Virus record (IMG/VR): IMGVR_UViG_3300043419_000665
Location: 1 to 64,000 of that record
Source: an uncultured virus (IMG/VR IMGVR_UViG_3300043419_000665)
Lineage: Duplodnaviria > Heunggongvirae > Uroviricota > Caudoviricetes
Length of the DNA stretch: 64,000 bases
Strand: one strand, 5' to 3'
This document shows positions 8,603 through 46,849 of the stretch, piece after piece. A program made the translations under genes and the position numbers. The notes below the pieces were generated by a model. The model searched no databases. It worked only from the letters and a program-made list of their open reading frames with translations, and was not told where the DNA came from. Within the stretch, counting starts at the first letter, position 1. Each line of letters starts with the position of its first letter.

Positions 8603-8657
8603 TTTTTTTCCGATCTAGTAGTTATTTTAAATTATTATAAATTATTTACCGATATTG

Positions 8658-9326: not shown

Positions 9327-9333
9327 AATACTA

Positions 9334-14049: not shown

Positions 14050-14050
14050 A

Positions 14051-14704: not shown

Positions 14705-14729
14705 GTGTTTTCTCCTTTGTGTTGTTATG

Positions 14730-15919: not shown

Positions 15920-15933
15920 GTAACATATTATAC

Positions 15934-17661: not shown

Positions 17662-17674
17662 TTCATACCTTTCG

Positions 17675-18217
17675 TTAAATAGATTCAGACCAGATTGGAA
17701 TGAATCGACCATCTTCAGTTCTCGTATATGTAAGTATACCATCGCCCATTCTTCGTGTCAACTCTTGTTTGCTGGGCGTAATATCATTTGTAATTAAATT
17801 ATCTTTTCTTGGTCTACCAATATGGTACGTAGCAAGTATATCACGAATCTCTCTTACTTGCGATTCTGAGTAATATGATCTTACTTGGAAGCCTCTTGCT
17901 CCACCTTTTTGAGATCCCATTGGGAAAGGAATAACTCCTCGTCTCATTAGTGATGGCATATATTTTTTATGACGATTAACTAAATCAGCAGTCTCTCTAA
18001 CCGTGTATGCTCTTTCACGTTTCTTTTTAAAATCAGAAATTAAACAACTTTCAATTTGATCTTTAGTGATATTATAAACAGACATAATTCCATTAGACTT
18101 ATTGAGATGATGTATTCTTACTAAGTCTCCATTTAAGAACCAAACCTTTTTATTCCCTGGAATTACAGGGAGGACATTGTAGCCTTCGCTCTCAATACTT
18201 CCCTTTTTAACAGCCAT
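17675..18217 (-). CDS. DNA-binding protein with MerR/excisionase-like HTH
   Basis: AYTVRETADLVNRH..RRGVIP..RSYYSESQV. Confidence 0.65.
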   Translation of the reverse strand: MAVKKGSIESEGYNVLPVIPGNKKVWFLNGDLVRIHHLNKSNGIMSVYNITKDQIESCLISDFKKKRERAYTVRETADLVNRHKKYMPSLMRRGVIPFPMGSQKGGARGFQVRSYYSESQVREIRDILATYHIGRPRKDNLITNDITPSKQELTRRMGDGILTYTRTEDGRFIPIWSESI

Positions 18218-25143: not shown

Positions 25144-25799
25144 TACGCCTCTTCCAGTGTTAGGGCGACATTCCAAAAGTCAAAGTTAAGACCGCTTCTT
25201 TTTACAACAGAATACTTAAAGTCTGAGAAAAATACTTCTACAATCTCATTATACTTATTTATATTATTAAACCTGTTGTCTGCTTCAGTTAAATCTGTAT
25301 CTTCAAAGTTTGTGTACTTATCATAAGCCAAGTAAACCCAAAAAGATCCTTTATGGTTTTCATACCAGTCAAGCAGTTCTACTCCGCCTGCTCCACCATC
25401 TGTAGTAAATTCTAATGGCTTTGGTCTTGATGGTGATGATTCCATGTCTGCATTTCCACTGGTATTAAAGTCTGCCTTGGTGTCATATGCTCTTGATGGC
25501 AGCATATCCCAAGAAACAGATATGTTTAATTTATCTGCAATGTGGTATGACCTCATACGTCCATTGATCATTCTTTCACGTTTTTCAATTCTAACGGGAG
25601 TAAAGTCTATCTCTGATCTATTATCATCAGAGAGTATTAGAAAGTCTCTAGTATTGGCTGCAGAGCCTGCATATGCCCCTACCTCGTACCCGTCTGGGAC
25701 GTAAAAACCATTAACCTTTGTTCCAGGGTTGTCTGCAAATAGCATTGCTTGTGGTCTTGAATATTTTTTTCTTCCAGACATATATGTATTAGTTGCCAT
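25143..25799 (-). CDS. Distal tail (Dit-like) protein
   Basis: Immediately after the tape measure; RMINGRMR..ISVSWDML..VALTLEE. Confidence 0.6.
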   Translation of the reverse strand: MATNTYMSGRKKYSRPQAMLFADNPGTKVNGFYVPDGYEVGAYAGSAANTRDFLILSDDNRSEIDFTPVRIEKRERMINGRMRSYHIADKLNISVSWDMLPSRAYDTKADFNTSGNADMESSPSRPKPLEFTTDGGAGGVELLDWYENHKGSFWVYLAYDKYTNFEDTDLTEADNRFNNINKYNEIVEVFFSDFKYSVVKRSGLNFDFWNVALTLEEA

Positions 25800-28700
25800 T
25801 ATAATCTATTCCCCCTGAGTTTTTGTGAATCAATACCCTTTATTTGTGTCATTACAACTCTTGCAATTTCATCTGGGTTTGCATCTGATTTTACATTAAC
25901 ACTAATACTATAATTATACACTGAGTCTCCTGCTGATTGGCCACTATTTATTGCTCTCATTGTGTCTGCACCATGAGACTGAACAGCATATCTACTCATT
26001 ACAAATTCTCCTGGTGTTAGCATTGCAGGGACTGTGTCTGTTCCAGAAGCATATCCACCTTCTGCAAAGTATTTTGGAACTAGTCCGCCCTTAGAAAACA
26101 TTTGAAGTCCATAAAAACCATTTCCGCTTCCACCCATTGATGCTCCAGAACCAACTAATGGCCTTAAACTCTTGTCTACATCCATTGGATTGCTAATGCT
26201 CTTTTTAGGCTGTTCTGCTAGTTGATGGAAATAGTCTGAGAAGTTTGCTACCTTGCCGTTAAATGGAAGACCTGGGATCTCTGTTCCTCCCCATGGATCT
26301 TTTCCAGCATCATTAAATATTGGCTTACCTTTAGTATCAAATCCTAATGGTGACTGCTGATGAAGTCTTTCTAGTTCTCCCCAATACCTTGATGTTGGAC
26401 TTCCAGTTGGCTTATTGTCTGAATCATATGCAGATTTTGGCTTAGGTGGAAAATATTCGTCTGCTCTAGCCTCTGATGTCTTGAACAAAGAAAGACCAGT
26501 AATTGCAGCAGCAAGTGCTGATGCTTTAGCGATCAGAGACTTGTTGGTTCCAATTTTTTGAGTGTTATTTAGATTTGGCTCAACGATTTTAGGGATATCT
26601 GTTCGTGGAACAAAAACTGTTTTTCCATCTTTTACAACTGCTTTAAGGTCTGGACCATCTTTAAACTTTAATCGCATTCCAGGAATATTTCCAACACCCC
26701 AATTGGTGTATGCATCTCCATGTCTATATCCAATATATCCATCTCTCATAAGTGATTGCATAAATGGGTCAGTTGTATCAGCATTTATATTTCCCATATC
26801 TCTTGGCTGAGTCCCTGTTGTTTTAATATAATTCTCTTTATATTTTGCCATTTTTGGTGGATCTATAAATCCTTTACTTGTTAAAACTTTAAACATTGCT
26901 TTTGGTGTCAAATCTATACCGTACTGATTATCTCCAAAAGTATTAAAGAATTGTTTAGAAGTTGCTGGACTAGTTGCACTATACAGGCCTGGCCCATATG
27001 CGTTCATTGGTGTTTTTGCTCCATCAAATTTTGATGCTAAGAATCTTTCTAAAGGAGATGGAAGATCCTCTATAAGTTTTCCATGTCGATGAATGCCTCT
27101 TTTCATTTGAATTAATGCACCAAGTCCGCCAGGAATTGAATCTAATATTGCTTGAGTCTTGTAGTGCTTTACTAATTCATCTGCATTGTCTCCACCAACA
27201 TCAGCAATCTGACGAGAAAGAGACATATTTCTTCCAAAGTTTGTTTTTTCGTATTTGCCTATTAAGAAGTTTGTTGCAGAATCTTTAACTTTATTAAATC
27301 TTGAAGTAATTGGGCTTGTAATATCAGAAGCAATATTTTTAAATGCGTTACCATATGAAGCAGTTTTCTTTCCATTTTCTCCTGAAACCATAGACCTTTG
27401 AAGATATGAACGCTCATCTAAAGGAGTGTCTATAAGTCTTTTAGGGTTAAGTGCTTTTCCTAAATCAGCAACAGTTGGTGCTACCTTTGCTGCCACAAGG
27501 CTTCCAAGTTTTGTGCTTAAAAATGAATTATTTATTGTTGGTTCTTTTTCTCCTAGCCTCCAAGCCTGACTTATTTTAGGGCTAAGATTTTCAAAAAATC
27601 TTCTAGGAGAATATACAGCATTTGCTATTTTGTTACGGATTGGGTTCATCCCTTGTATTTTCATTCCAAGTCTTGTGTCCCAAGGTTGTTTTGGCATTAC
27701 CCAATTATCTGAATCCCAACTTCCCCAATCATCCATATTTGATTCTTTTGAAGATACTGTATTAGTATTAGTGGTTAGTTTTTCTTCTACCAAACTTGTA
27801 TTTGGTTTTGTTGTTGTTACAGCATTTGCCTTATTTAGTATTTTATTAAATATATCGATACCATTTTTTCCAAGGGATTCTTTTATGGTTTTAGGAATAA
27901 TGCTACCTAACTTGTTAATTGCTGGCTTTACTGCTTTTAAACCTGGAACTGGTGCAACTGCTAAAGCAGCATTTAAATTATCTTTTAGGCTAGACTTTGT
28001 TTCTGCACCCATTGCTTTAGCAGCAAACATTTGAGGAATACCGCCATACTTTGCAATGTCCAAAGCAGTTTTTGCTATTGATGGAAGTGAAAAGAAGTTA
28101 GCAGTTTTTTCCCATATCTTCTTATCAAATAATGATGTTGCTCTTTCATCTTGGGTATTGGTGCTTCTAGAGCCCATTGATGACATCCCTAGACCATGTG
28201 GTGCACCTACGGTTCCACCAGTTGAGAATCTTTGAACATTTATATCATTTAAGAAGTCTTGGCCATATTGATCAACTGCAGACTTTCTAACTACAAACTC
28301 TCCTGGAGTTAACATTGCAGGTACAGTATCTGTACCCTTTGGTATGAAGCCACCATCTGCTTGATATAGCATTCCGTACTTTCCTGTTAGACCTCCTCCA
28401 GGTTTTGCATTTGGATCAACTTCTGGAAGTGTTGCATCGTATGCCGACTGGATTGCAGCAAGAGCAATTCCTGCATTTCTAACTCTATACATGTTTCCAC
28501 TTGCAACGGCTGATTCGTATGCTGCAATTGCTGCATCAAGTGCTTGTACTGTGTTATCAAACTTTTCTGCTTCACTTATTGTTGCTTGTGTCTCTTGAGG
28601 TGCTACATAGGCTTCTGCGCCTACTCCTCCAATTTGATTCATTGCATTTTGAACTGCGCCAGGAATTCCATTTGCATATTGAGCCATCTTTGCAAGAATA

Positions 28701-31700
28701 TCTGCCCATGTCATGTTTAATGTCTCTGCTGCTGAAAGTAGTGCTGCTAAGTCTGCTGATTGAGCAAGGGCTCGCTTTGTTGCTGCATCCATATCAAGCA
28801 TTGCATTGATTCTATCCCACTCGTCCCTGGTTTTTCCAAGAACTCTTAGTCCTTCAATTTGCTTGTCGATACTATCCTGCAATAATTTATTTGTATAGTT
28901 AAGAGCATCAATTCTTTCTTGAAGTGGTTCAATAGAATTTTCTTCAATATTCCAAATTTTATCTTCAAGATCTCTAATCTTACGTAATGCGGCTTCACGC
29001 AGTTCTTCTTTTTTGTATATTTCATCTTGCTTATCCTGAATCTGCTTTAATATTTCAAGTCTACGTGGATCAGTTTCCATACGATAAATTGCTTGTGCAT
29101 TTTGGAATTGTTTTTCACTTATCTGATCCTGAGTCAATCCGCTTTGTGGCCCTACAAGACTACCAAGTGCATTTTTTCTTGCCTGCTCCAATGCATCTGA
29201 TTGACCTGATGCAAACTGTGAGGCGCTTGTTGCTCTCATATCTTGTGCTGCTTGGGCTGCTGCTGAAATATCACCTTGAGTCAAGGCATCAGCAAGACCA
29301 AGTTGTTGCTTCTGCTGATCAAGAATATTTTGATTTATTTCTTGAACCTTTGAAAGCGCTTCTGCTTGCTCGTCGTATCTCTTGTTAACTTCATCTGCTG
29401 CATGATTTATAATTTCAAGATCATTTGAAAGCATTGTATTTTCATCTTGAATCTTCTTTATTGCACGGTCACCAAAGAAAGGATTCATTTCTAGATCACG
29501 GTTTAGGTCATTAATCTCTTCGTTTAAATCTTCTATTGGTCTTGTGTATGATTCTTCAATTACTCTTTGACCATCTTCAATTTCATCATTTAGTTCTGCA
29601 ATTCTTCTTTGGAATGGAGCAATCTGTCCTTCAAGATCTCTGATTTGTCTTTGATTGCCCTTTAGTTGCATTGCCTCTGGGCCTGTACGAATAAGTGCTT
29701 CCTGTGCTGCAAAGAGTTCGTCTACAACTTCTCTTCCCTTATCGCTGGCTTCTTTAAGTGCTCCCTTGTTAAGCAAAATCTGAATATCAATAATTTTTCT
29801 TGCTTCAATGTTATTTAGAGTCTCTGCAATTTCTTTAGCCTCTAACTTTCCATCCTTCAAATCTTCTACTAAGAATTTTGCTAACTCTGGGTCTCCAAGA
29901 ACTGCATCAATCTGATCTGTGCTATACCCAAGTTCCTTCATCTTAGAAACTAGTTCTGGCATTTTTGCATAAAGACCAAACTCCTCGTTTGCCTTTATTG
30001 CTTTATTTAAAACTGCTTGGCGCTCAAGTTCTGTATTTGCTGTCTTTATATTATTAATATATGTTTGCCATGCTGGTGATGATGTATCTATTGCTCCCGC
30101 TGCAATTGCTGCTGCTTGACCTGTGTCTGCAACAACCTCTAATGCTTTTGCTGCAGATAGTCCGCTACCAACAAGAATAGCATATGCCTTAGTTTGATTC
30201 TCTATATCCTTTATTATTGTTGCATTAGCAATGTCAAAGTTACCAAGGTCTTTTGCTTTGATTGCTTTGTCTGTTGCTTCGCCAAGTGGACCAAGACCAG
30301 ATATTGAATCCTTTGATCTTGGCTTTCCTTTTTCAAAGGTAAACATAGCCTTATCTTTTGGTAGTGCTGCAACCTTTGCAAAATCTTCTGCAGACATAGA
30401 TGCAACAGCATCTCTTAGTTCTTGACCAACACCAAGTTTTAGAAGCCTATGTTGTATACCATCAAATAAAGTAAAAGCATTCTTCTTTGTTTTATTATCT
30501 TTTAATAATTCTAGTAATGATTTTACTGGTGTGAGGGCATTAAATGCATTGTCTCTTACATTCTTTAAAGCCATTGCCAATGGTGCTAAGAATGCTAGTG
30601 GATCATTTCCTGCTCCGCTGCCACCACCTGAATCTGCATTGCCTGAAGAGTTAACAACAACCTCTCCATTTTCACCAATATAAGTTTTTGTGCTTGCAGC
30701 AACTCGGTCAACAAGTGTTTCATCTGCATTTTTTGCATTATACATAAGCGATGTTAAGTGGCCTGTAGCAGTTGTATCTCCGCCTGTAGCCTTTTGTGCA
30801 TACTTGCTATAAAATGCCAACCTGGATGCTTCATCAGCAAACACTGTTTCCATTATAGTTTTAAATTTAGAGACTGCTTCTTTTTGTGCAAAGTCTGGAA
30901 GTTTATCAAAGTCTTTCCATTTGCTAAATAATACTTCAAGGTTGCTTTCTGTCATACCCTTCATACCCTTGCCCTTGCCATTAACAAAGTAATCAAGGAT
31001 AATAGCCTTATCTATTTTCTTTGGCATTCCATCAATTGTTTTTAAATCTTGAGAAAGTTTGACAAGCATATCATAACCAATTGGTTTGCCATCAGAATCT
31101 TTCATGCTAAGGAATGCTTCCATATTAATTTCATGACCGTCTAATACTCTTAGAACTGCCAGGGTTTCACCTATTTCATTAAATGTTTTTTTATCACTAT
31201 TAATAATTTTTGTAGAAATCGTGGCTGCAGCATCGCCATCTTTAAACGCTGAAAAGTATTCTAAAATTTCTATAGTTGGTCCAGCACCCTGTCTTTGCAT
31301 TCCAACCTTTAGTGTTTGACTAAGTTCTGGTAATTTTCCTTCAAACATAAGTAAGAAGGTGTCCATTTGGTCTGGATTTAAAACCTTGTTTGCTAGAAGA
31401 AGCGACATGTCAACTTCAAAATCTTGAGCAGCCATTTGGGTCTTAAATCCTCCCTTTGTTGCATTTCCGTCACCTAATTTCAAGGTCTTGTCGCTTAACT
31501 TAGCCAATTTTTCAAGGGTTGTTCCTACTGATGTTTCAAATCCTGTACCTTTATAGGTATCTTTAACTTTAGATTTTAGGGAAGAAAAGTAGGCGGTTTC
31601 TTTTTTGTTTGATTTAAAACTATCTACATTCTGAATATTGTCTTTAAATCTTTTCTTTTCTCTGTCCATTTGAACAACGACTGCATTATTTGCAACCACC

Positions 31701-34700
31701 ATATCGTCTGCCATTTTTTCTTCTAATCCAGCAATCTTTTCTTTTATTTTTAAAAGTTTTTCTGCATTTGAAGTGGACTCTAACTCTTTTTCTAATAACT
31801 GAATTTGTTTTCTATATTGAAACTCTGTTGCATCAGCCTGTGCTTTTGCAACAGAAATATTGTTTACAGAAAGTGCTGCAAGTTGTGCAGCCTCTGTTCT
31901 ACCACCATCCATACTCATTGGTGAGTAGTTTTTATTCATTGCATCGATAACTCTATCAGATCTCTTGTTTGTCTCCTGAACAATTTGCATTCTAACCTTT
32001 AGAGGATTATTTGCTAGATCTTCTCCGTTTACACCAATAACTTCTCTTAAGTTTCCAACAATATCAGCAGTGTACTTTCTGCTGCCTAGTTGTACTCCTA
32101 TTTGATCAGCAATGTCTGCTGCTTGTGCTGCATCTAAAACTCCATCTGAAACATATGTTGATAATTGTAAAGCAAAATCTTTTGCTGCTGCCTGTGAACC
32201 AGATTTGGACATTTCTTTTACAAAGCCATCCACCATTTTCTTTCCAATTTCTGACCTTAAGAATGTATCTCCAAAGCCAGTTCCTGCTCGTTCAACATCG
32301 TTGTATGAACCAAATGATCCCTTCTTTCTTACTTCGTCCATTGCACGAGAAGCGCCAACCTTGTCTGTTATCTTTCCTATCTCGTCCATCTTATTAGTTG
32401 TTGCTGATATTGAATCTACATACTGGGCTTGCTTTTTAGCAGAATTTTCAAAATGCTTATTTAATAAAAACAGTCCTGCACCTGCTGCTACTATTGCAGT
32501 TGTAACCCAGCCAGTTGGCCCCATACCCGCAAGCATTGGAGCCATACCTGCAACTGTTGAAGCGCCCAGCATTGCCATACCGCCCGATGTATTGCCAGAC
32601 ATCATCATTGCAGATCCAGCCATGCCAAGCCCCATAGCCAATCCGCCTGATGCTACTCCAACTTTTTGTGCACGATAGTCTCTTTTTTCTTTAATCTTAT
32701 TTTTTCGTGCTTGTGCATCTTGTTTTTGTGACTGCTTAAGATTGTTTAGTTTTCTTCTTTCATCTTCGTCTAATGCTTCTTGATAATACCTTGCCTGATT
32801 ATAGTTAAGATTTGAAAGATGTTGCTGCTTTCTAAATCTGGCTCTTGCTTCATTAGTCTGTCTTCTGCGGTCTGCATCATCTAACTTTTGATTTCTTACT
32901 TGTTGGGTTACGGATTCTGATTTACCCTTAGCAAGTTTTGCTTCATCCTTTGCAACCTTTCTTAATACTTTATCAATTTCATCTTGGCTATATCCCTTTG
33001 CACGAAGATCTGCTGCTACTCTACCCTGGCGAACTGTAGGGTTTGGCATTGGTCTGTCTGCTTGAGAATCAAATCTTGGATCACCCGTAGCCATTCCAGG
33101 CATAGAGAATCCAGGTACAGATGCAAAACCTCTACGGAAATTTGCAAACTGTCTTCTAGTTACAACTGTTTGGTTTGGTGTTAATGATGTTCCTCTGCTA
33201 TCTTTACGACTTCCGCTGCTTGGAACTGCTCCAGCCTTTGCTGCAGTAGTATTAGAATCTGTTAATTTTTCTGTTCTTATTACTCTTTTGGTTTTTGGAT
33301 CAATTGTCATCTTGGTCTCACTACCGTCAGGGTTTACTAAGACTGGCAATGTTTTATCTGATCCACTCTTAAGGTTGAACTCTGGTTGAGGAGAACTATA
33401 GTACTTTGTGCCAAATCTATCATCGAGAACAGCCAAGACTCCCTTAGCAGTTTTTGCTGGTCCTAGTTTTGGGAACCTCTTTGGCTTTCTTCCTGCTTTT
33501 GCTTCACTGTCTTTGTATTGCTGCGCTAGAACATCAAGTTCTGCTGCTTTTTGGACTAACCTTGCTTCTCTTTCATTTGTTGGATGACCACCCTTTGACA
33601 TGAACTCAGCAGCCTCAGTATAAATTCCAATCTGATTTTTTGGAATAAACGGGTGTCCATTTTTTGCACTCCAGTCTAAAATCTTGCCGTGTCTAACTGA
33701 AGCGTTCATAAACTTATTTAATATACCTAAATCAAACATAGCAGAGCCTGTTAACCATTTAGCAGGGCCCTTACCAGGTTTTCCAGTTTTACTTATATGG
33801 GATAGTTCAGTTCTTAGTGCAGTATCAATTTCTTTTGGTTTGTATCCCAAAGCAACAAGTTTTTCTCTTACTGGCTTTAATGGATCATTTTTTCCTGCAA
33901 TTTTATTTTGTTCTGTAAAGGCCTTTTCTTCAGCATCTAAAACTTGATACAACTCAGAATCTCTAGGAACGTTTCCTCTCCAAGATCCACTTTCTTTTCC
34001 TACAGGGCTAACTGCATTTCTTAATCTAGAGGCAGCATTAATTTTTTTATCGCTTACAAATTCTCCATCTTTTTGTCTTACACCCATCTGATAAAAAACT
34101 TTTTGCATTACTTCTTCATATGTTCTTCCATAAACTCTTCCAGCATCTAAAGTTTTTTTGTCGTGATAAAGTCCATCTTTGTAAATAAGTTCCTCGTCAA
34201 CAAACTTAAGCATATTGCTTTGGCTCAGATAATCTTCTAAGGTCTGTGGACCAATTACTGCTGGTGTCCTTGCATTCATTTTTTGTTTTGCAATTGCATC
34301 TAGTACTCTTCTTTGTTGCTCTTCAGGTAGTTGCTTAAAATCTCTAGCAGCCTGAGCAGCAAGACCTTTTCTTAGTGTTGATATCTGTCTTTGTGATTCT
34401 GGAATATTTTTAAACTTTTCAAAATCTCCAAGTGCAAGTTTTTTAACACCTTCTGATGCACGAGCATGAACTGGATGAAGTTCATCCCAGTGTACTTTTG
34501 CTCCAGCCTTAAGTCTTTCAAGCATGTTGTTGTAAACAACTTGCTCTTCTGGATTTAAATCCCCACTCCAAGACTTAATAAGTCTTTCTAGTTTTGGAAT
34601 AGAACTATTAATCTCTCCTTTAATTGCATCATCATATTGTTTTGGTGTCATGCTTGCTGCAACACCTGATGTTTCTTGTGCAAAGAACTTCTTTGCGCCT

Positions 34701-37672
34701 CCCTTTACACCAAGCAAGTTAACAACTGCTTGCTCCTCCATGCTTGGCATTGCTTTTGAGAAATCTCTAAAACCAGATGCTCTATCAAACACTCCAGCCG
34801 TTCCAACATCTGCTAACACATTTCCAGACAAATTTGGTTGCTGTAAATCTTTGTCTCCTCTTAATGTTGAAGCAACTAACTGCTTAACCATATCAGACTT
34901 GCTAAACTTGCCATCCATTGCTGCTATTCTTGGATCATACGGTGATTCAATTACTATAAACTTTCTTTGACCTGATGGATCTGTTGGGTCAATCATTGTT
35001 CTAATACTTTGTTTTGGTGCAACTAGACCATGAACCTGTCTTGCAATTTCAGTAGCACGAACTTCTGCTAACGCAGTCTTTTCATCTATTGTTGGTTTTA
35101 CTACAACAATCTTTCCATTAGGCTTTCTGTATATACCGCCAACTCCTTGAACAGGGAAACTTCTTCCAGAAAATGGCTGAAGCAGTGTCCCAAAGTTTGA
35201 TGGAGGCAAAGTTCCAAATCTTCCGACACTTACTTGATCACTAATTTTTTCTACTATCTGCCTTGACTGAGATGTTTTATCGCTTGACTTTGGCATTCCA
35301 ACAAATACTGGACCAGTTGGAACTTCTGGATGAGGCTCGTTATATCCTTGTCTTGCATCATCTCTTCTTCTATACTTTGCTTGCTGTGCTTTTCTAACTG
35401 CTGCTGGTCCATCAGATAGTGGTATTCCTCTACCTGGTCCACCAGGAAGTCTTCCAGCCATAAAACCTGGAACCTTATCCTGGAACATGGCACTAATAAG
35501 TCCTCTATATTTGTTTGTTGTATCTGTAGGAATAACTGCTTCTCCTGGAGAAAGCATTGCTGGAACAACATCTCCTGCACCCTTTGGACCTGGAACACTC
35601 AGGATTCCCTCTGCATACTTTTTAACTGGTGGCAACTTGCTTACTGCACGTCGTGCACCTGGTACTCCACCTGCAAACAATGAAGGATTCTGTGCAGCCA
35701 TAGTTCTCATTTGTGTGCTAAGAGCATGATAGGATGCAGCAAGATTATTTACGGAAACCTTTTCAACATTAAATACTTCGATCAATCTTGTATGTGTTTG
35801 GTGTAACTGTTGAGAGGCAGCAGCAGATTCTATCTGCTCTTGAGTCATGTAGTTAAATCCTGCACCCATTACAGATGTCTGTCCATTTAACTTTGCTATT
35901 CCTCCACGCAGCATTGCAAAGAATTTAATAACATTTGCTACGCCGTTTGCAAGTAAACCAAATGTCATAAGAAGTACTGGTCCAAGACCTGCAACAACTC
36001 CAACTATGACAGCAACTACCTTTTTAGTTTGATCGCTTAATCCATTAAACTTTTCAAATATGTTACCAAAAAACTTAACAACTGGAGTTAGTGCTTCAAG
36101 AAACGCTTTACCTAATGGCATGATCTCTTGCTTGAACTGTTCTATTGCTGCCTGAAACTTAACCCCTACTGAGTCTTCAATCTTCTTCATTTCTCGCTCA
36201 GACAAGACTGCTAATTCTTCTATAGTAGATCCTGCTAAGTCAAGTGCTCTTGATGCCTGAGTTCCATCTTTTGCAACATTTTGGAACAAGGTAGAAAGAC
36301 GAGCAAACTGGAACTTTCCAAACATTTGCTCAATTGCTCTTGCACGATTAAGTGGATCGAGTGTATCAAGTGCTTGAGCAAATCCAATAACTGTTGCCTT
36401 GATATCTCCCTGGTTTGCTTCTACAATTCCTTTAACATTGATACCAAGATCTGCAAGGAATCCTGCTGCCTTCTTGGATGGGTTAATTAGGGATGCTAGA
36501 CCAGACTTTAATGCGTTAGCACCTTCAGATGCGTTGATTCCACCTTCTTTCATTGCAGTCATAAAGAATGCAAGGTCTTCAACGTTTCCGCCAAGTTGTT
36601 TAATTACTGGTGCTGCTTTTGGAATAGCGATTGTTAAATCTTCAATTGAAAGAACGGTCTGGTTTTCTACTGCGTTAAGGAAGTCAATCTTTTTTGCAAG
36701 TTCTTCGCTAGACAAACCAAAAGCATTTTGTAAAGACATAGTTGTTTCAAGTGCTTGCTGTTGTTCTACTTGTCCAAGCACTGCTAGTTTAGTTGCAGTT
36801 TCAACCTGAGTATTTAATGCTGCTCCTGCAAAACCTGCTGCTGCTGCTGTTCCAGCCATCTCCATTGTTTTTGTAACAGAGACTCCGTACTTTGTATATT
36901 CAGTTGCTAACTTTCTAATGTTTTCAACTGCAGCATTTACTTCTGCATCATTTGTAACTGCTGTTCCATACACACGCTTAAACTTAACAATCTCTGTTTC
37001 AAGTTCTCTAAATGCTTTTGCAGCAGATGCACCAAATAAAGCAAGTGGCATTGTAAGACCAACCATCAACTGGCGACCTGCCCACTGAGTATTCTTACCG
37101 AAGTTCAGGAGTTGTGTTGATCCCTGCTTTAGTAATTGATTTAAGAACTGCTGTCTTTGTGCAGCATACTGAATTCTTGCTCCAAGTTCAGTAAATCTTC
37201 CACTAGCCATCTGAAGATTTTTTGGCATAATGCGAATAGCATCCATAAAGCCAGCATTGGCTTTGTTCATCTGGATGTATTGTGCTTGTAAAGCCTTTAC
37301 TCTGTCTCGTCTTGCACGGTTGATAATTTCTCGCTCTTGTGCAAAAGCCCTGCCCATAACACGAGTGTTGGCAGTTGCTGCTGCCATTGTGTATCTGTAG
37401 TATTCACGAAGCGAAAGTTTATTTTTTTCTAAAGCAGATGTAAATGCTAGTGTACTTCCTGCAACCTTAACTTGGCTTGCAGAGAACTTTCCTGTTGCTC
37501 CAAGAGACTGAAGCAGTTGTGCGTTTAAACCTTTTTGTGCATTTGCAGCAGCCAGGTTGCCCTCAGCAAGTGATTGATGAAACTTACTGAGGCCTGCCTG
37601 AAGTTGTCGAAGTTGTGCAAGGGCGGCAGCCGTATTAAAATTAATATTTATATTAGAGTTTACATCTGCCAA
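25799..37672 (-). CDS. Giant tape measure protein with inserted enzyme-like domains (3957 aa)
   Basis: Between tail chaperones and Dit; TP901-type core (ATKLAVLG..GINASEGANALKSGLASLINPS..IEQMFGK); hydrophobic segments; long coiled coils; three VPAML(S/T)PGE modules; TTG start. Confidence 0.9.
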   Translation of the reverse strand: MADVNSNININFNTAAALAQLRQLQAGLSKFHQSLAEGNLAAANAQKGLNAQLLQSLGATGKFSASQVKVAGSTLAFTSALEKNKLSLREYYRYTMAAATANTRVMGRAFAQEREIINRARRDRVKALQAQYIQMNKANAGFMDAIRIMPKNLQMASGRFTELGARIQYAAQRQQFLNQLLKQGSTQLLNFGKNTQWAGRQLMVGLTMPLALFGASAAKAFRELETEIVKFKRVYGTAVTNDAEVNAAVENIRKLATEYTKYGVSVTKTMEMAGTAAAAGFAGAALNTQVETATKLAVLGQVEQQQALETTMSLQNAFGLSSEELAKKIDFLNAVENQTVLSIEDLTIAIPKAAPVIKQLGGNVEDLAFFMTAMKEGGINASEGANALKSGLASLINPSKKAAGFLADLGINVKGIVEANQGDIKATVIGFAQALDTLDPLNRARAIEQMFGKFQFARLSTLFQNVAKDGTQASRALDLAGSTIEELAVLSEREMKKIEDSVGVKFQAAIEQFKQEIMPLGKAFLEALTPVVKFFGNIFEKFNGLSDQTKKVVAVIVGVVAGLGPVLLMTFGLLANGVANVIKFFAMLRGGIAKLNGQTSVMGAGFNYMTQEQIESAAASQQLHQTHTRLIEVFNVEKVSVNNLAASYHALSTQMRTMAAQNPSLFAGGVPGARRAVSKLPPVKKYAEGILSVPGPKGAGDVVPAMLSPGEAVIPTDTTNKYRGLISAMFQDKVPGFMAGRLPGGPGRGIPLSDGPAAVRKAQQAKYRRRDDARQGYNEPHPEVPTGPVFVGMPKSSDKTSQSRQIVEKISDQVSVGRFGTLPPSNFGTLLQPFSGRSFPVQGVGGIYRKPNGKIVVVKPTIDEKTALAEVRATEIARQVHGLVAPKQSIRTMIDPTDPSGQRKFIVIESPYDPRIAAMDGKFSKSDMVKQLVASTLRGDKDLQQPNLSGNVLADVGTAGVFDRASGFRDFSKAMPSMEEQAVVNLLGVKGGAKKFFAQETSGVAASMTPKQYDDAIKGEINSSIPKLERLIKSWSGDLNPEEQVVYNNMLERLKAGAKVHWDELHPVHARASEGVKKLALGDFEKFKNIPESQRQISTLRKGLAAQAARDFKQLPEEQQRRVLDAIAKQKMNARTPAVIGPQTLEDYLSQSNMLKFVDEELIYKDGLYHDKKTLDAGRVYGRTYEEVMQKVFYQMGVRQKDGEFVSDKKINAASRLRNAVSPVGKESGSWRGNVPRDSELYQVLDAEEKAFTEQNKIAGKNDPLKPVREKLVALGYKPKEIDTALRTELSHISKTGKPGKGPAKWLTGSAMFDLGILNKFMNASVRHGKILDWSAKNGHPFIPKNQIGIYTEAAEFMSKGGHPTNEREARLVQKAAELDVLAQQYKDSEAKAGRKPKRFPKLGPAKTAKGVLAVLDDRFGTKYYSSPQPEFNLKSGSDKTLPVLVNPDGSETKMTIDPKTKRVIRTEKLTDSNTTAAKAGAVPSSGSRKDSRGTSLTPNQTVVTRRQFANFRRGFASVPGFSMPGMATGDPRFDSQADRPMPNPTVRQGRVAADLRAKGYSQDEIDKVLRKVAKDEAKLAKGKSESVTQQVRNQKLDDADRRRQTNEARARFRKQQHLSNLNYNQARYYQEALDEDERRKLNNLKQSQKQDAQARKNKIKEKRDYRAQKVGVASGGLAMGLGMAGSAMMMSGNTSGGMAMLGASTVAGMAPMLAGMGPTGWVTTAIVAAGAGLFLLNKHFENSAKKQAQYVDSISATTNKMDEIGKITDKVGASRAMDEVRKKGSFGSYNDVERAGTGFGDTFLRSEIGKKMVDGFVKEMSKSGSQAAAKDFALQLSTYVSDGVLDAAQAADIADQIGVQLGSRKYTADIVGNLREVIGVNGEDLANNPLKVRMQIVQETNKRSDRVIDAMNKNYSPMSMDGGRTEAAQLAALSVNNISVAKAQADATEFQYRKQIQLLEKELESTSNAEKLLKIKEKIAGLEEKMADDMVVANNAVVVQMDREKKRFKDNIQNVDSFKSNKKETAYFSSLKSKVKDTYKGTGFETSVGTTLEKLAKLSDKTLKLGDGNATKGGFKTQMAAQDFEVDMSLLLANKVLNPDQMDTFLLMFEGKLPELSQTLKVGMQRQGAGPTIEILEYFSAFKDGDAAATISTKIINSDKKTFNEIGETLAVLRVLDGHEINMEAFLSMKDSDGKPIGYDMLVKLSQDLKTIDGMPKKIDKAIILDYFVNGKGKGMKGMTESNLEVLFSKWKDFDKLPDFAQKEAVSKFKTIMETVFADEASRLAFYSKYAQKATGGDTTATGHLTSLMYNAKNADETLVDRVAASTKTYIGENGEVVVNSSGNADSGGGSGAGNDPLAFLAPLAMALKNVRDNAFNALTPVKSLLELLKDNKTKKNAFTLFDGIQHRLLKLGVGQELRDAVASMSAEDFAKVAALPKDKAMFTFEKGKPRSKDSISGLGPLGEATDKAIKAKDLGNFDIANATIIKDIENQTKAYAILVGSGLSAAKALEVVADTGQAAAIAAGAIDTSSPAWQTYINNIKTANTELERQAVLNKAIKANEEFGLYAKMPELVSKMKELGYSTDQIDAVLGDPELAKFLVEDLKDGKLEAKEIAETLNNIEARKIIDIQILLNKGALKEASDKGREVVDELFAAQEALIRTGPEAMQLKGNQRQIRDLEGQIAPFQRRIAELNDEIEDGQRVIEESYTRPIEDLNEEINDLNRDLEMNPFFGDRAIKKIQDENTMLSNDLEIINHAADEVNKRYDEQAEALSKVQEINQNILDQQKQQLGLADALTQGDISAAAQAAQDMRATSASQFASGQSDALEQARKNALGSLVGPQSGLTQDQISEKQFQNAQAIYRMETDPRRLEILKQIQDKQDEIYKKEELREAALRKIRDLEDKIWNIEENSIEPLQERIDALNYTNKLLQDSIDKQIEGLRVLGKTRDEWDRINAMLDMDAATKRALAQSADLAALLSAAETLNMTWADILAKMAQYANGIPGAVQNAMNQIGGVGAEAYVAPQETQATISEAEKFDNTVQALDAAIAAYESAVASGNMYRVRNAGIALAAIQSAYDATLPEVDPNAKPGGGLTGKYGMLYQADGGFIPKGTDTVPAMLTPGEFVVRKSAVDQYGQDFLNDINVQRFSTGGTVGAPHGLGMSSMGSRSTNTQDERATSLFDKKIWEKTANFFSLPSIAKTALDIAKYGGIPQMFAAKAMGAETKSSLKDNLNAALAVAPVPGLKAVKPAINKLGSIIPKTIKESLGKNGIDIFNKILNKANAVTTTKPNTSLVEEKLTTNTNTVSSKESNMDDWGSWDSDNWVMPKQPWDTRLGMKIQGMNPIRNKIANAVYSPRRFFENLSPKISQAWRLGEKEPTINNSFLSTKLGSLVAAKVAPTVADLGKALNPKRLIDTPLDERSYLQRSMVSGENGKKTASYGNAFKNIASDITSPITSRFNKVKDSATNFLIGKYEKTNFGRNMSLSRQIADVGGDNADELVKHYKTQAILDSIPGGLGALIQMKRGIHRHGKLIEDLPSPLERFLASKFDGAKTPMNAYGPGLYSATSPATSKQFFNTFGDNQYGIDLTPKAMFKVLTSKGFIDPPKMAKYKENYIKTTGTQPRDMGNINADTTDPFMQSLMRDGYIGYRHGDAYTNWGVGNIPGMRLKFKDGPDLKAVVKDGKTVFVPRTDIPKIVEPNLNNTQKIGTNKSLIAKASALAAAITGLSLFKTSEARADEYFPPKPKSAYDSDNKPTGSPTSRYWGELERLHQQSPLGFDTKGKPIFNDAGKDPWGGTEIPGLPFNGKVANFSDYFHQLAEQPKKSISNPMDVDKSLRPLVGSGASMGGSGNGFYGLQMFSKGGLVPKYFAEGGYASGTDTVPAMLTPGEFVMSRYAVQSHGADTMRAINSGQSAGDSVYNYSISVNVKSDANPDEIARVVMTQIKGIDSQKLRGNRL

Positions 37673-37691: not shown

Positions 37692-38018
37692 TTATTTGTT
37701 TAGCGAATTAAGCAATGCTCCTGCATCGGAGTTTTGAAGTCCTGATGCTACATCGATAATTTGATAAACAGTTGGAAGGTCTAGAAGATCCTCTAGCGCT
37801 TCTCTGTCTTCTGCCAATTCTGGCTTGAATTGCTTTAGTGCGATTTGTGCACAATCAATAAGGATATCCATTGACTTATCATTATCATCTGATGACTCTG
37901 CTAATAGAGAAAACTTAGCCATGAATGGTCTAAGCAATGATAACTTAAGTGGTCTTGCTACAATCTCTGTACCGTCGATTAGTGTGATACTTTTGCTGTT
38001 TAAAGGCTTGTCAGCCAT
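37692..38018 (-). CDS. Tail assembly chaperone (short, G-like)
   Basis: Directly before the tape measure; paralogous to the N-half of the upstream gene; AGGAGG RBS and own TGGTATAAT (38047-38055). Confidence 0.7.
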   Translation of the reverse strand: MADKPLNSKSITLIDGTEIVARPLKLSLLRPFMAKFSLLAESSDDNDKSMDILIDCAQIALKQFKPELAEDREALEDLLDLPTVYQIIDVASGLQNSDAGALLNSLNK

Positions 38019-38047: not shown

Positions 38048-38752
38048 TTATACCATGCTGGAGGGTGTAGATTCGTCTAATTTTTCGTAGGTTAATCCCA
38101 TGCCAATTCCAAAACCAGCCTTTTGTGCATTATATCCCTGAAGTGCAACAATATCTTTAGAATCAGATGCTTGTCCACCACTGAATACTCTGGCTTTCAT
38201 TTCTTCCCAGGCATTTTGTTTTCCACTGGCTTCGTCTAAGTTAACACCTTGCATAGCAGCAAGAAACTTCTTTTGAGAATAATCAAGATCTCTCTTAGTC
38301 TTAAGTGTTGCCATTATCTCTGGCATTGACATAGATGATTCTAACTCATCGTAGTCTTTCCAAATCCCCAGCAAAAATACCTCTGCTTCTATCTCTGCTA
38401 AATCTAAGTCATCCCAAGTAGAGCCACTTTCAGTTGCTTGCTCTTTTACTGGCTCTTCTGATTTTTCGTTTATTTTTATTCCTGCTGAATAATCTAATAG
38501 TTTATATATTGTTGGCATGTCAATATTATCCTCAAGTTGCTCTTGAGTCTTTATGCTTGGATAATATTGTCTCATTGTGATTGTTGCACATCTACATAAA
38601 GAGTCAATTGCCTCTGTATCATTTCTTGCTTCTTTAACACTTTCAAACTCACGTAAAAATAACTTTAAGTATTTTATCTTTAATGGCGTTATATACAACT
38701 CTGTTCCATCAAAGAGTTCGATGGTGGAGGTTTTGTATATTTCTGTAGGCAT
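38048..38752 (-). CDS. Tail assembly chaperone (long, G-T-like fusion)
   Basis: After the major tail gene; C-half W..YDELESSMSMPEI resembles a T-type domain; leaderless ATG 6 nt after TGGTATACT (38759-38767). Confidence 0.7.
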   Translation of the reverse strand: MPTEIYKTSTIELFDGTELYITPLKIKYLKLFLREFESVKEARNDTEAIDSLCRCATITMRQYYPSIKTQEQLEDNIDMPTIYKLLDYSAGIKINEKSEEPVKEQATESGSTWDDLDLAEIEAEVFLLGIWKDYDELESSMSMPEIMATLKTKRDLDYSQKKFLAAMQGVNLDEASGKQNAWEEMKARVFSGGQASDSKDIVALQGYNAQKAGFGIGMGLTYEKLDESTPSSMV

Positions 38753-38772
38753 TGTATAAGTATACCAAACAG

Positions 38773-38803
38773 AAAGGCCCAACCCCGAAGGATTGAGCCT
38801 CTC
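38773..38803 (-). terminator. Rho-independent terminator after major tail gene
   Basis: AGGCTCAATCC-TTCG-GGGTTGGGCCT then TTCTGTTT. Confidence 0.8.
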
Positions 38804-45241: not shown

Positions 45242-46849
45242 CTATTCGGACATTTCGGTCAGATCATCAACCTTACGGCCTTCGCCTTTGGGATTTCTTC
45301 CACTTACTGTGGCTTGTCCATCAGACTGGTTGTTTGTTCTTTCAGTGTCCCTTGCTCTGTTAGCATTATCGTTTGCTGTCTGTTCTGGCTTTGGATCAAA
45401 CGGCTCGTTGCCACCCTCGATTTGAGGAAGTCCAAGAAGTTCTCGACCTTCGTTTGGTAGCATAACCTGTGTCTTAACAAGTCTTTCGATAATCTGTGAT
45501 TGAGCAATTTCATCTGTAAGTGTAAGTTCATTGAACTTAAACTCAAGAATATCTGTCTTTTCTTTTACGATCTTGTTGATCATTTTTTCAAGATTTCTTT
45601 GTGCTGGTCTTGCAACCTGCTCTTTAAATGTTCTATCCTGTGCAAGTGCTGCAGCAATAGCAGAAGAGTCTCCTCCGCCAATTTTTGACAAAGGCACCTG
45701 GTGAGCAACAAGAATATCATCTCTATTTTGCTTACGATATTCCTTAAAGGATGCTTCCTGAACACCATTTTCAACTGGGTCCATTTTAAACTCTACCTTG
45801 TTTGTGTCAGAGTCTCCTGGAAGAGGAATGTAAAGTGTTCTATGGTTTTGTCCCTTAAGTCCAGTCTGTAAAAATCTAAACATCTTGTCTTCTGCTTCTG
45901 GAGATAACTTTGCACCTTTAAGAGTTACAACATATCTTGGCGTTGCCTTATTCTGGAAATAATCAATGTTATATTGTGACGCAAGTTGATCACCATGAAG
46001 AGATCCAATTGCTGACATTATATCTGGGACACCATAAAAAGTATTTAGTGGTGAGTATTCTTTAAAATGAATAATCTCATTTGGTCTTGTGTCTGCTCCT
46101 ACTGGGTTTGGATTTGTTGCTCCGAAATTACGGAAGTATACAACCTTGTTTCCAATAACCTGAACAAACCCATCACGAAGACGACGCACACGCATTGTAG
46201 TTGATGGGATGTGCCCTACATAACCAATATCTCCACGAACTGTTCTACCTATTTCAAGATATGCATTTCCTGTTGACTGTAGGTCAGTAAATACCTTTTC
46301 CATAGTTGTAGTAAATGAGTCTTCATCGTTTAAAGATTCTAGCCAATCAGTTAACTCAATCTTTGCTCTTTCAATTCTTTTCCTTGCATTTTCTGCTGTC
46401 TTTGGTTCTGATGCCTCTAACTTAAGCATTGTTCTCTTAGAGACCTTAAACTCATATCCAAGTCCAACAATGTTTTCTACCTTTGCATCAATTGCAGCAT
46501 GGTTTGCAAATGAAGTGTCGTAAAAACTTGCTAGTTCGTACAAGTTCCATGGTGGCGTAATTACATCAAATAAGCCGTATGCATTTCTGTATACAGTTCC
46601 TGAATTAATTTCTTTTGATCTTGCACCATCAATACCGACGCTCTCTGCTCTCGAACTATCGATGTATCCCTGTGTTGCTTCAGTTTTTACAATACGAGAT
46701 GTTCTTCTTTTAAAGTTGTTGTCTAAGCCTTGCAAATCTTTAATTACATCCCATGTTTGATTAAAAGGGTCTTGCTTTGTAAAAGTATCATCTGCTGGTA
46801 GTGGAGAATCTGTTTTTGCTCTAATAAAGAATTCTTTTTCTTCACTCAT
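45242..46849 (-). CDS. Portal protein
   Basis: DLQSTGNAYLEI, NEIIHFK..FYGVP, YFQNKATP, ILVAHQVP, PNEGRELLGLP. Confidence 0.9.
   Translation of the reverse strand: MSEEKEFFIRAKTDSPLPADDTFTKQDPFNQTWDVIKDLQGLDNNFKRRTSRIVKTEATQGYIDSSRAESVGIDGARSKEINSGTVYRNAYGLFDVITPPWNLYELASFYDTSFANHAAIDAKVENIVGLGYEFKVSKRTMLKLEASEPKTAENARKRIERAKIELTDWLESLNDEDSFTTTMEKVFTDLQSTGNAYLEIGRTVRGDIGYVGHIPSTTMRVRRLRDGFVQVIGNKVVYFRNFGATNPNPVGADTRPNEIIHFKEYSPLNTFYGVPDIMSAIGSLHGDQLASQYNIDYFQNKATPRYVVTLKGAKLSPEAEDKMFRFLQTGLKGQNHRTLYIPLPGDSDTNKVEFKMDPVENGVQEASFKEYRKQNRDDILVAHQVPLSKIGGGDSSAIAAALAQDRTFKEQVARPAQRNLEKMINKIVKEKTDILEFKFNELTLTDEIAQSQIIERLVKTQVMLPNEGRELLGLPQIEGGNEPFDPKPEQTANDNANRARDTERTNNQSDGQATVSGRNPKGEGRKVDDLTEMSE

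Follow-up and report, generated by a model that had tools for sequence, protein, structure and literature searches.

A conserved module repeated in giant phage tape measure proteins and found at the borders of their exchangeable segments

The tape measure gene, its three modules and the segments between them

The window analysed here is a stretch of 64,000 nucleotides from a siphophage contig of IMG/VR (record IMGVR_UViG_3300043419_000665, 73.8 kb in full), and the features considered in it, all on the minus strand, are collected in Table 1. Its longest feature, the 3,957-aa ORF, is a tape measure protein (TMP) of the TP901 family, since it matches PF10145 at aa 255-452 (92.3 bits, curated cut-off 33.2, E 4.9e-26) and TIGR01760 at aa 208-565 (113.8 bits, curated cut-off 28.8, E 8.4e-33) and occupies the corresponding gene position; PHROG tape-measure families match it as well (best E 4.9e-97). 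The gene order is portal, protease, capsid, Ig-domain tail protein, two phrog_10504 ORFs, TMP, 218-aa ORF and 1,437-aa minor tail protein, with chaperone-like ORFs flanking the TMP gene on one side and Dit/Tal-like ORFs on the other. Pfam gave no match on either of the two downstream tail-tip ORFs, and none of the 21 neighbouring tail-gene ORFs matched a JAB/NlpC-type or other protease in Pfam. Megablast of the TMP gene against cultured phages returned no match.

Table 1. Features of the tape measure gene and of the two genes downstream of it (positions in the window)
Feature	Residues (aa)	Window positions	Strand	Remarks and basis
TMP gene	3,957 aa	25799..37672	-	TTG start as listed, stop codon 25799-25801; ORF list and translation
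Hydrophobic, transmembrane-like stretch	549-586	35915..36028	-	Module 1 begins ~90 aa further downstream; Kyte-Doolittle maximum of 2.49 in a 19-residue window
Module 1 (subtype A)	675-731	35480..35650	-	KKYAEG..SVPGPKGAGDVVPAMLSPGEAVIP...; profile envelope
Cargo A, predicted protein-kinase-like domain	~807-1076	34445..35254	-	AF2 and fold comparison
Module 2 (subtype B)	3093-3153	28214..28396	-	C-terminal flank RFSTGG; profile envelope
Cargo B	3160-3745	26438..28195	-	Segment between modules 2 and 3; no Pfam family found
Module 3 (subtype B, subterminal)	3857-3917	25922..26104	-	N-terminal flanks FSKGG, FAEGG; profile envelope
C-terminal tail	3918-3957	25802..25921	-	SVYNYSI.VNVKSDANPDEIARVVMTQIK...; kept in 34 relatives (alignment)
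218-aa ORF, Dit position	218 aa	25143-25799	-	Gene order; candidate docking partner
1,437-aa minor tail protein, hub/Tal position	1,437 aa	20863-25176	-	phrog_10359 minor tail protein, E 5e-61; candidate docking partner

An earlier note on this DNA had pointed to three long repeated motifs, and all three are present, in frame, on the minus strand and within this one ORF. The core VPAML[ST]PGE begins with residues 703, 3117 and 3881 (window 35540-35566, 28298-28324 and 26006-26032). A degenerate DNA pattern of the 9-residue core matched the 73.8-kb record three times on the minus strand and never on the plus strand, and the reversed control pattern gave no match in the same record. Judged from their sequences, the three repeats are copies of one homologous module of about 55 aa, whose envelopes were taken from a profile. 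Its layout, namely [FY]AxGG, a Gly loop, a core ending in GE[FY]V, a helix and a second [FY]AxGG, is seen in modules 2 and 3, in lambda, JBD30 and Douge and in 38 aligned copies; module 1 represents a subtype with a PG[FY]xxG end, and it runs on into VPGFMAG at aa ~733-740, just downstream of the profile envelope. Module 2 is 75% identical to the orthologous module of a related TMP (L015) but just 37% identical to module 3 of its own protein.

The same note had placed five shorter motifs at the edges of the inserts, and of these FMAG, FSTGG and FSKGG are flanks of the modules. The pattern [FY][AS]xGG occurs in the TMP only three times, as FSTGG (aa 3149), FSKGG (aa 3859) and FAEGG (aa 3869), against a mean of 0.26 and a maximum of 3 in 500 shuffled sequences; all three are conserved flanks of modules 2 and 3, and FMAG (aa 737) is the conserved PG[FY]xxG end of the module-1 subtype. 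LALG (aa 1079) and MATG (aa 1527) fit a looser pattern only, and since this pattern is found 4 times where shuffled sequences give a mean of 2.48, they are at chance level as motifs. The position of LALG is nonetheless that of a homology breakpoint, one recorded in 9 comparisons.

Cargo A is, in its AF2 model (27-sequence alignment, pLDDT 77-98 over model residues 140-420), a bilobal protein-kinase-like fold. The best VIA-align match is CtkA (3akk_A, Z 10.5, rmsd 4.4 over 202 aa), and 50 of the 50 listed rows are kinase-like folds, PI4KII, HipA, LepB, Fam20 and VPS34 among them; Foldseek gave weaker support (E 2.3e-3, prob 0.98). An invariant GDKDL...N...D.G motif in the 27 sequences (D281, D283, N288 and D296 in the numbering of the first sequence of the alignment, with D281, D283 and D296 at about aa 940, 942 and 955 of the TMP) fits, by eye only, the catalytic-loop Asp/Asn and the metal-binding Asp. 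No kinase family of Pfam matches the segment, and its 56 sequence relatives are TMP-like proteins or fragments only. For cargo B the ESM Atlas offered weak leads only, including ART-PolyVal (PF18760) clusters at 0.78-0.86, with recognition below the stated level. Cargo B is followed by a weakly hydrophobic stretch (aa 3712-3731), a segment of ~110 aa and module 3. A hydrophobic stretch precedes module 1 and, weakly, module 3 only; a transmembrane segment systematically ahead of each module is absent from the averaged profile of 341 copies, and this idea was rejected. The C-terminal tail contains an AF2 helix (model residues 91-112) and is likely a tail-tip plug helix, as C-terminal helices have been resolved in lambda gpH (818-849), T5, JBD30 and Douge and serve as the analogy here.

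Spread, conservation and mosaic boundaries of the module

On profile evidence the module is also homologous to lambda gpH 732-786, to JBD30 gp46 1015-1068 and to two copies in the TMP of Douge. In the exhaustive search the module matched 34,978 cluster representatives at E<=1e-3, 11,048 at 1e-10 and 1,731 at 1e-30, and a word-indexed search gave 3,901 proteins at E<=1e-3; these match sets were ordered by summed score and thus favour multi-copy proteins. The number of copies per protein reaches 10-11, in proteins of up to 7,872 aa, and PF10145 lies near the N-terminus in seven of ten sampled multi-module giants. The variant of the module found in lambda is matched by 997 of 50,697 cultured-phage records. 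In 41 of 50 complete related TMP ORFs the first module shares the subtype-A consensus, and 31 of the 50 have their last module ending 37-50 aa before the C-terminus. An ordinary TMP, that of CN1A, carries the module at 1312-1371 of 1,436. Among 327 distinct copies, a set biased to top-scoring matches, the D, A, G and E of the module are 100% conserved and the P, L, V and N 97-99%. Glycine makes up 20-25% of the residues on both flanks.

None of the families of Pfam, NCBIfam and PHROGs covers the modules; phrog_35029, of unknown function, matches aa 3859-3911 only. The motif was not found printed in the searchable literature either: among the matches listed, core and flank strings of the module retrieved unrelated papers only, those for the flank strings being primer or antibody strings. 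The module, for which Pfam has no model, appears to be an ancient element that belongs to tape measure proteins.

The modules had also been proposed to serve as DNA-level homology anchors. This does not hold within the gene, where the three copies share exact runs of 9-10 nt only, but it does fit comparisons between phages, where exact runs of module DNA reach 95, 59 and 35 nt and the median is 10-11. Of the 26 codons of a core of modules 2 and 3, 18 agree in the residue that they specify, 9 being identical in sequence and 9 synonymous, which points to selection on the protein. A recent in-gene duplication was ruled out by 78% identity over 63 nt and by the shortness of the exact runs.

The proposed tie between motif position and cargo boundaries is supported, as modules lie at the edges of exchangeable segments both here and in related TMPs. 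Among 11,998 HSP ends in related giant TMPs, 30.0% fell within 30 aa of a module, where randomly placed positions gave 9.4% (200 draws, at most 10.1%), although this enrichment is partly inflated because a conserved island stretches alignments to its edge; with unique breakpoints only, the excess is smaller (15.1% vs 9.7%, maximum 11.3% in 500 draws). The strongest breakpoint of the TMP is at aa 753 (36 comparisons), and five relatives lose homology at aa 740-753, immediately past module 1. Further breakpoints surround module 2 (aa 3092 in 2 comparisons, aa 3157 in 15) and precede module 3 (aa 3853, 9 comparisons); strong ones at aa 1078, 1652, 1903 and 2963 are far from every module. In one relative (L018) the segment between modules 2 and 3 is replaced exactly at the modules, with homology ending at aa 3157 and restarting at aa 3860 and a different, unrelated insert of ~285 aa in between. 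Three others (L012, L019, L020) are without module 2 and cargo B, and in two (L011, P0072) cargo B is reordered. Relatives differ by whole module-plus-segment units. The idea that modules bracket the cargo is right for the part enclosed on both sides, but the kinase-like segment of this phage has an upstream module only; its counterpart in another relative (L034) has modules on both sides. Pfam found almost nothing except PF10145 on the inter-module segments of 28 relatives.

Docking as a proposed role, and the alternatives to it

The reading that we favour, and to which we give about even chances, is that the module is a docking or junction peg dependent on a partner, marking where the ruler or channel parts of the TMP meet ejected cargo and doubling as a joint for recombination. 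Its architecture comprises an [FY][AS]xGG strand, a Gly-rich loop, a hairpin-like core (G)[TS]D[TS]VPAML[TS]PGE[FA]V and one or two short helices leading to the conserved Asn and to a second [FY][AS]xGG (PG[FY]xxG in subtype A), the whole unit being set between Gly-rich linkers. Module 3 is the standard subterminal copy that ordinary TMPs have as well, with the probable C-terminal plug helix ~44 aa further on; module 1 comes after the hydrophobic stretch of the TP901-type core, and module 2 would have come with a cargo cassette. Such a peg may become structured only when bound to a partner at the tail tip or inside the tube, namely the hub, Dit or neighbouring TMP chains, and the 218-aa and 1,437-aa tail-tip proteins are candidate docking partners in this phage. 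The peg would set the register of the TMP in assembly, or hold the expelled TMP at the opened tip, and would thereby separate the ruler and channel parts from the segments pushed into the cell, here the kinase-like domain and the second insert. Since the module is the sole stretch common to all these genes, related phages would recombine at it, and segments would as a result be swapped, added, lost and reordered there.

In AF2 monomer models, pLDDT is 32-53 over module 1 and 55-81 over module 3, in comparison to 77-98 over the neighbouring kinase-like domain, and the C-terminal 115 aa have a mean pLDDT of 63 and no hairpin. Docking fits better than autoprocessing, to judge from the unfolded state of the module in these monomer models, the hook predicted in JBD30 and a positional analogue in the opened hub of T5 (see below). 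It is, however, hard to reconcile with docking at the tip that copies occur thousands of residues from the C-terminus and number up to 10-11 per protein.

A doubtful but possible alternative, raised in part by the earlier note, is that each copy specifies a cut, which would be either autocatalytic or due to a protease, of phage or host origin, with the module or its [FY]AxGG flanks as its recognition site. As a polyprotein, the giant TMP would then be divided at tail maturation or ejection into ruler, kinase-like and other pieces. The invariant Asp and Glu, the Thr or Ser following the Asp and the Asn conserved at 98% would suit this, but AF2 shows no compact fold able to hold an active site, and a Pfam search of the three module segments gave no family, of proteases or otherwise, even with the threshold relaxed to E<=10. 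The core seems to resemble the nucleophile hairpin of S24/S26 peptidases; self-cleavage of that type was rejected, as there is no family match and no Lys at the right spacing and as lambda is without the Asp. Cuts in known TMPs also favour processing: lambda gpH loses a C-terminal piece of ~14 kDa (PMC12617516), by mass from a site 7-20 residues before its module, a cut has been proposed right after the JBD30 hook (PMC11445458), and that of T5 falls between anchor and enzyme domain (PMC10038345). Nevertheless, the copy in lambda has neither Asp nor Asn at these positions, T5 pb2 is cleaved although it has no module, and the JBD30 cut is a peptide-cutter prediction joined to an analogy. Because cleavage in lambda depends on the assembly stage (PMC12617516), simple self-cleavage is argued against. 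Cleavage beside the module is plausible all the same, by analogy, since the lambda cut maps just upstream of its copy. A still more far-reaching proposal, which we consider unlikely, is that the module is a universal release-and-dock signal: a cut at the Gly-rich flank would free a new end that docks in the tip, giant TMPs would be polyproteins delivering exchangeable enzymes into the host ahead of the DNA, and the same element would be the determinant of gpH cleavage in lambda.

The module could instead bind a partner outside the tip, such as the chaperones of tail assembly, the inside of the tube wall or, after ejection, a host envelope factor, the repeats being extra attachment points along a very long protein. 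Copies do lie all along the protein and not just near the C-terminus, the first copies in the largest module proteins are regularly spaced, ~950-1,250 aa apart, and the tail-lumen proteins of T4-like cyanophages have one copy in mid-protein (in S-SCSM1 gp159, 54 aa before a glucosaminidase domain); the unfolded monomer models agree with this reading too. The tip is favoured over a tail-wide partner by the fixed distance at which the last copy stands from the C-terminus, and we regard binding elsewhere as quite unlikely. Finally, it is improbable that internal copies are left-over C-terminal ends of serial fusions or cassette insertions by TMP-gene recombination, persisting as harmless linkers without function. 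In favour of this, the module is a standard subterminal element of ordinary TMPs (CN1A, lambda, JBD30), relatives differ by entire units and the 95-nt runs between phages fit recombination; against it, the in-gene paralogues are old by their short exact runs and synonymous differences at half of the conserved codons, internal copies are conserved as strictly as terminal ones (97-100% at core positions), and a functionless linker would have decayed.

TMPs are known to be cut, as in lambda and T5, and to carry single enzyme domains. The module is found beside the region where lambda is cut, at the hook of JBD30 and where swapped enzyme-like segments have their borders, and it offers a concrete target in the fifty-year-old question of the lambda cut site and its determinant (PMC12617516). 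Delivery of the inter-module segments into the host, if it occurs, would make giant TMPs a large and unexplored store of phage effectors, modular in build, and the module would be a natural place to splice when tail cargo is engineered. Were it a structural peg and nothing more, it would still define the domain grammar of the longest known proteins of phages.

Comparison with known systems

The polyvalent proteins of phages and conjugative elements are very large and multidomain, with several enzyme-like domains, and are thought to enter the host with the DNA (PMC5512222). The giant TMP resembles them in its size and multidomain build, and ART-PolyVal clusters are among the weak leads for cargo B; it differs in that the available text of that paper is without the term "tape measure", and a junction module was not seen in the concept there (PMC5512222).

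Closer parallels are found among TMPs of cultured phages. The mycobacteriophage Douge has two module copies in gp16 (PDB 8ZDO), at 963-1027 and 1412-1468 of 1,699 aa (E 4.2e-18), and is thus a cultured phage with an internal copy, but only residues 1658-1699 of gp16 are built, and repeats are not mentioned in the available text (PMC13033339). The module likewise lies outside the built residues of the lambda and JBD30 structures (818-849 in lambda, the last 33 residues in JBD30). In JBD30 gp46 the profile match is weak (15 bits; E 0.04 against the PDB, 8.7e-7 as a single protein), and it covers the same stretch as a hook, composed of a pair of helices with one short beta-hairpin, that AF2-multimer predicts at 1022-1066 (PMC11445458). 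This hook may hold the TMP in the baseplate once the C-terminal domain leaves and was likened by its authors to the element in T5; they propose a cut directly after it, on the basis of a peptide-cutter program and analogy (PMC11445458). In contrast to the module, the hook is described, in the text available, for one phage, with no family, repeats or link to inserted domains (PMC11445458).

In T5 pb2, the 42-43 residues before the cut dock into a crevice of the opened hub; the cut itself, after R1127, was mapped by mass spectrometry, and the released pb2C is a muralytic domain (PMC10038345). The order of elements is like that of the module 1 region, i.e., a hydrophobic stretch, a linker, the anchor or module and then an enzyme-like domain, and in T5 the enzyme domain is expelled first and the anchor is ordered only on the opened hub; T5 differs in having only one enzyme domain (PMC10038345). 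The analogy is positional only, since the anchor (pb2 1085-1127) is without sequence similarity to the module, the best profile match in pb2 scoring -4.1 bits and lying elsewhere in the protein.

The likeness to lambda gpH is the most direct. The motif that the earlier note had named for gpH is correct, as FATGG...GEFV stands at gpH 732-779, and the profile of 341 copies matches gpH with 19.4 bits (E 3.3e-8 as a single sequence); a further profile of the module finds gpH among all PDB sequences at E 1.3e-3. The single copy, with FATGG and YATGG flanks and a GEFV core, follows a Gly-rich hydrophobic stretch and precedes the tip-located C-terminal helix by ~35 aa; gpH differs in its length (853 aa), in having no embedded enzyme-like domains and in lacking the Asp and Asn that are near-invariant elsewhere. 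It matures to gpH* and gpHC, with site and protease not identified (PMC12617516, PMC10721106). A piece of 14 kDa would by its mass place the cut near residues 710-725, so that the copy does adjoin the inferred cleavage region, as had been proposed. The module of lambda seems to lie in the released gpHC piece and not at the end of gpH*, and the T5 anchor is on the opposite side of the cut from it.

The repeated module and its gene

The three long motifs described in the earlier note are real and lie in frame within one ORF, that of the tape measure protein (TMP; aa numbers refer to it), where the core VPAML[ST]PGE starts at aa 703, 3117 and 3881. The back-translated core gave these three matches on the minus strand and none elsewhere in the record, and a reversed control pattern gave 0. 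Each core belongs to a ~55-aa repeat, here called modules 1 to 3 from the N-terminus. The shorter motifs listed with them fared unevenly: FSTGG, FSKGG and FMAG are conserved module parts, but LALG and MATG only fit a loose pattern with 4 matches, where 2.48 are expected. FSTGG, FSKGG and FAEGG, the only three matches to [FY][AS]xGG in the TMP (shuffle mean 0.26), flank modules 2 and 3 as conserved motifs, while FMAG is the conserved terminal part of the module-1 subtype.

Coordinates of the TMP gene, its modules and other features of the locus
Feature	Position	Strand	Remarks
TMP gene	25799..37672	(-)	3,957 aa, TP901-type
Module 1	35480-35650 (aa 675-731)	(-)	profile envelope
Module 2	28214-28396 (aa 3093-3153)	(-)	profile envelope
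Module 3	25922-26104 (aa 3857-3917)	(-)	profile envelope
Gly/Met/Ala-rich stretch GGLAMGLGMAGSAMMMSG	32400-32620 (aa ~1690-1760)	(-)	mid-TMP
Two neighbouring ORFs 5' of TMP	37692-38018 and 38048-38782	(-)	both phrog_10504, E about 1e-18
134-aa ORF	46849-47253		precedes portal gene
1,236-aa ORF	47272-50982	(-)	weak Laminin_G_3 match, E 4.4e-4
717-aa ORF	55511-57664	(-)	N-terminal major-tropism-determinant domain PF18454, E 1.1e-13; many tail-fibre PHROGs

PHROG tape-measure families match the TMP (best 4.9e-97), as do PF10145 (aa 255-452) and TIGR01760 (aa 208-565). The gene stands in a siphophage structural block in the order portal, protease, capsid, Ig-domain tail protein, two chaperone-like ORFs, TMP, a 218-aa ORF and a 1,437-aa minor tail protein; every gene near the TMP is on the minus strand. 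The phrog_10504 pair occupies the tail assembly chaperone position. The 1,236-aa ORF, for which a PHROG search gave no match, is flanked by a ribonucleotide reductase gene and the 134-aa ORF. The IMG/VR record is 73.8 kb long and rated 67% complete, and the window covers its first 64 kb. A protein encoded at 6976-18171 of another IMG/VR contig (L010, 98,649 bases) is 100% identical to the TMP over 3,731 aa, so the same phage has a more complete genome on record.

Across 327 distinct copies, a set skewed towards high scorers, the consensus is GG-x-[VI]-Y-[FA]-[ANS]-x-G-G ... G-[TNS]-D-T-V-P-A-M-L-T-P-G-E-F-V-[VIM]-[NRK]-[KR] ... G ... L-x-x-[MI]-N, with conservation of 100% for D, A, G and E and 97-99% for P, L, V and N. 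Glycine content is 20-25% in either flank. Subtype A (module 1) carries ..SVPGPKGAGDVVPAMLSPGEAVIP...N[IV]PG[FY]xxG, and subtype B (modules 2 and 3) has [FY][AS]xGG at either boundary. At the DNA level, modules 2 and 3 are 78% identical over 63 nt and have no exact run longer than 9-10 nt, and the 18 same-residue codons of their 26-codon core comprise 9 identical codons and 9 synonymous differences. The identity of module 2 to its orthologue in another phage is 75%, versus 37% to module 3. The copies are thus old and kept by protein-level selection.

Distribution of the module

TMP cleavage, single enzyme domains within TMPs and one predicted hook were previously known. Our literature search returned no account of the module as a family, of its repeats or of a link to exchangeable segments, and its motif letters in no relevant paper; the polyvalent-protein paper (PMC5512222) does not mention tape measures. 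In the part of the DT57C paper dealing with C-terminal TMP fragments, an alignment of DT57C, lambda and 80alpha gave no conserved motif.

The window modules match no Pfam family, even at E<=10, and in lambda gpH Pfam's lambda families reach residues 54-256 and 627-701 only. The lambda gpH FATGG motif, mentioned in the earlier note, indeed belongs to a module copy, a single one at 732-786 flanked by FATGG and YATGG. One copy each was also found in JBD30 gp46 (1015-1068) and in the Clavibacter phage CN1A TMP, 65 aa from the protein end, and two in Douge gp16 (963-1027 and 1412-1468); profile comparison found none in T5 pb2. T4-like cyanophage tail-lumen proteins carry a single mid-protein copy, which in gp159 of Synechococcus phage S-SCSM1 (aa 594-643) lies 54 aa ahead of a glucosaminidase domain (697-816). 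The module-bearing virion proteins of the T4-like cyanophages S-SCSM1 (locus L006, 2231-5083) and S-SM2 (L005, 4002-6302) adjoin baseplate hub genes.

The lambda variant occurs in 997 of 50,697 cultured-phage records. A word-indexed search gave 3,901 module-bearing proteins, and an exhaustive search of cluster representatives 34,978 at E<=1e-3 and 1,731 at E<=1e-30, with up to 11 matched stretches per protein and a maximum protein length of 7,872 aa. Our own profile recount of the top 149 hits gave 4-10 copies each, and seven of ten sampled multi-module giants have an N-terminal PF10145. The longest proteins with many modules (P0178, P0180 and further top matches) have their first modules regularly ~950-1,250 aa apart (starts in P0178: 600, 1824, 3065, 4131, 5107 and 6058) and their last ones clustered close to the C-terminus; this spacing may represent a series of ruler units with short cargo cassettes after them.

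Segments between modules

We surveyed 76 module-bearing ORFs from 76 viral loci, 50 of them complete. Among the latter, 5 have one copy, 31 two, 10 three, 3 four and 1 five; the first module begins between aa 640 and 700 in 41, and the last ends 37-50 aa before the C-terminus in 31. The basic layout thus runs from the core through a hydrophobic stretch to module A, then a long middle, module B and a ~44-aa tail; against this layout the window's third copy is extra.

The segment after module 1 (cargo A) and the insert between modules 2 and 3 (cargo B, aa 3160-3745) vary among related loci. L018 is homologous to the window TMP up to aa 3157 and again from aa 3860, with an unlike ~285-aa insert in between; L012, L019 and L020 are without module 2 and cargo B entirely; in L015/L017 module 2 and cargo B are 63% identical from aa 3092, the backbone 49%. 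In five relatives homology ends at aa 740-753, and L034 has the kinase-like segment with a module on either side. In L011 (3-10328) and the protein P0072 the cargo B sub-segments (the large part, aa 3181-3738, and the ~110-aa part, 3744-3857) are reversed in order, and P0038 has only the small ~110-aa part between its two modules.

The proposed association of modules with segment boundaries was borne out in 71 non-redundant proteins (HSPs of at least 120 aa, 11,998 ends): 30.0% of HSP ends fell within 30 aa of a module versus 9.4% at random (maximum 10.1%, 200 draws), and 15.1% of unique breakpoints versus 9.7% (maximum 11.3%, 500 draws), figures to be read knowing that a conserved island pulls alignment ends to its own edge and that the compared sequences are mutually related. 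Strong breakpoints remote from modules lie at aa 1078, 1652, 1903 and 2963. The Gly/Met/Ala-rich stretch, which may be a second membrane-active segment, adjoins breakpoints at aa 1652-1681 (11 and 9 comparisons).

The idea that modules are DNA-level anchors for exchange held in part: copies within the gene share at most 9-10 nt exactly, but between phages the exact runs are 95 nt for module 1 with L015/L016/L017, 35 nt for module 1 with L033, and 59 nt for module 2 with L015/L017. Exact runs in module DNA between phages have a median of 10-11 nt, and DNA around the shared runs is 70-90% identical. Runs of this length suffice for homologous exchange, but could equally be its outcome.

An AF2 model of module 1 plus the following 350 aa (27 sequences) gave pLDDT 77-98 for aa ~800-1080 and 32-53 for the module. 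In this model the folded part is protein-kinase-like: fold comparison gave CtkA (3akk_A) as best match (Z 10.5, rmsd 4.4 over 202 aa), all 50 rows being kinase-like, while Foldseek was weaker (E 2.3e-3). The invariant columns GDKDL...N...D.G resemble, by eye, a catalytic loop. TMP-like proteins or fragments account for all 56 sequence relatives of cargo A, one of which is named as Chitinophagia MAG-derived. Cargo B had no Pfam family match, and Atlas returned weak ART-PolyVal leads only.

Possible docking or cleavage

The earlier note offered either processing or docking as the role of the module. For lambda gpH, the passage on processing in PMC12617516 describes removal of ~14 kDa out of a Gly-rich region; placed by mass alone, the cut is near residues 710-725, directly ahead of the module. 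Cleavage adjoining the module is a possibility. We favour the reading that the module would be a partner-dependent docking peg placed at segment borders, given the lambda, JBD30 and T5 facts and the module being ill-defined in both monomer AF2 runs. In the published tail structures of all three phages, lambda, Douge and JBD30, the module lies outside the built parts (lambda 818-849, Douge 1658-1699, JBD30 last 33 residues). The section of PMC11445458 on JBD30 gp46 predicts a hook at 1022-1066, two helices and a short hairpin, proposed to retain the TMP in the baseplate once the C-terminal domain has left; this hook coincides with the module. For T5 pb2, the relevant section of PMC10038345 describes 42-43 residues ahead of the mapped R1127 cut as ordered within the opened-hub crevice, with hydrophobic helices before this docking segment and an expelled enzyme domain after it. 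The window TMP shows the same order, a hydrophobic stretch (549-586), module 1 and the kinase-like domain; lambda, however, differs from T5 in that its module lies on the opposite side of the cut from the T5 anchor.
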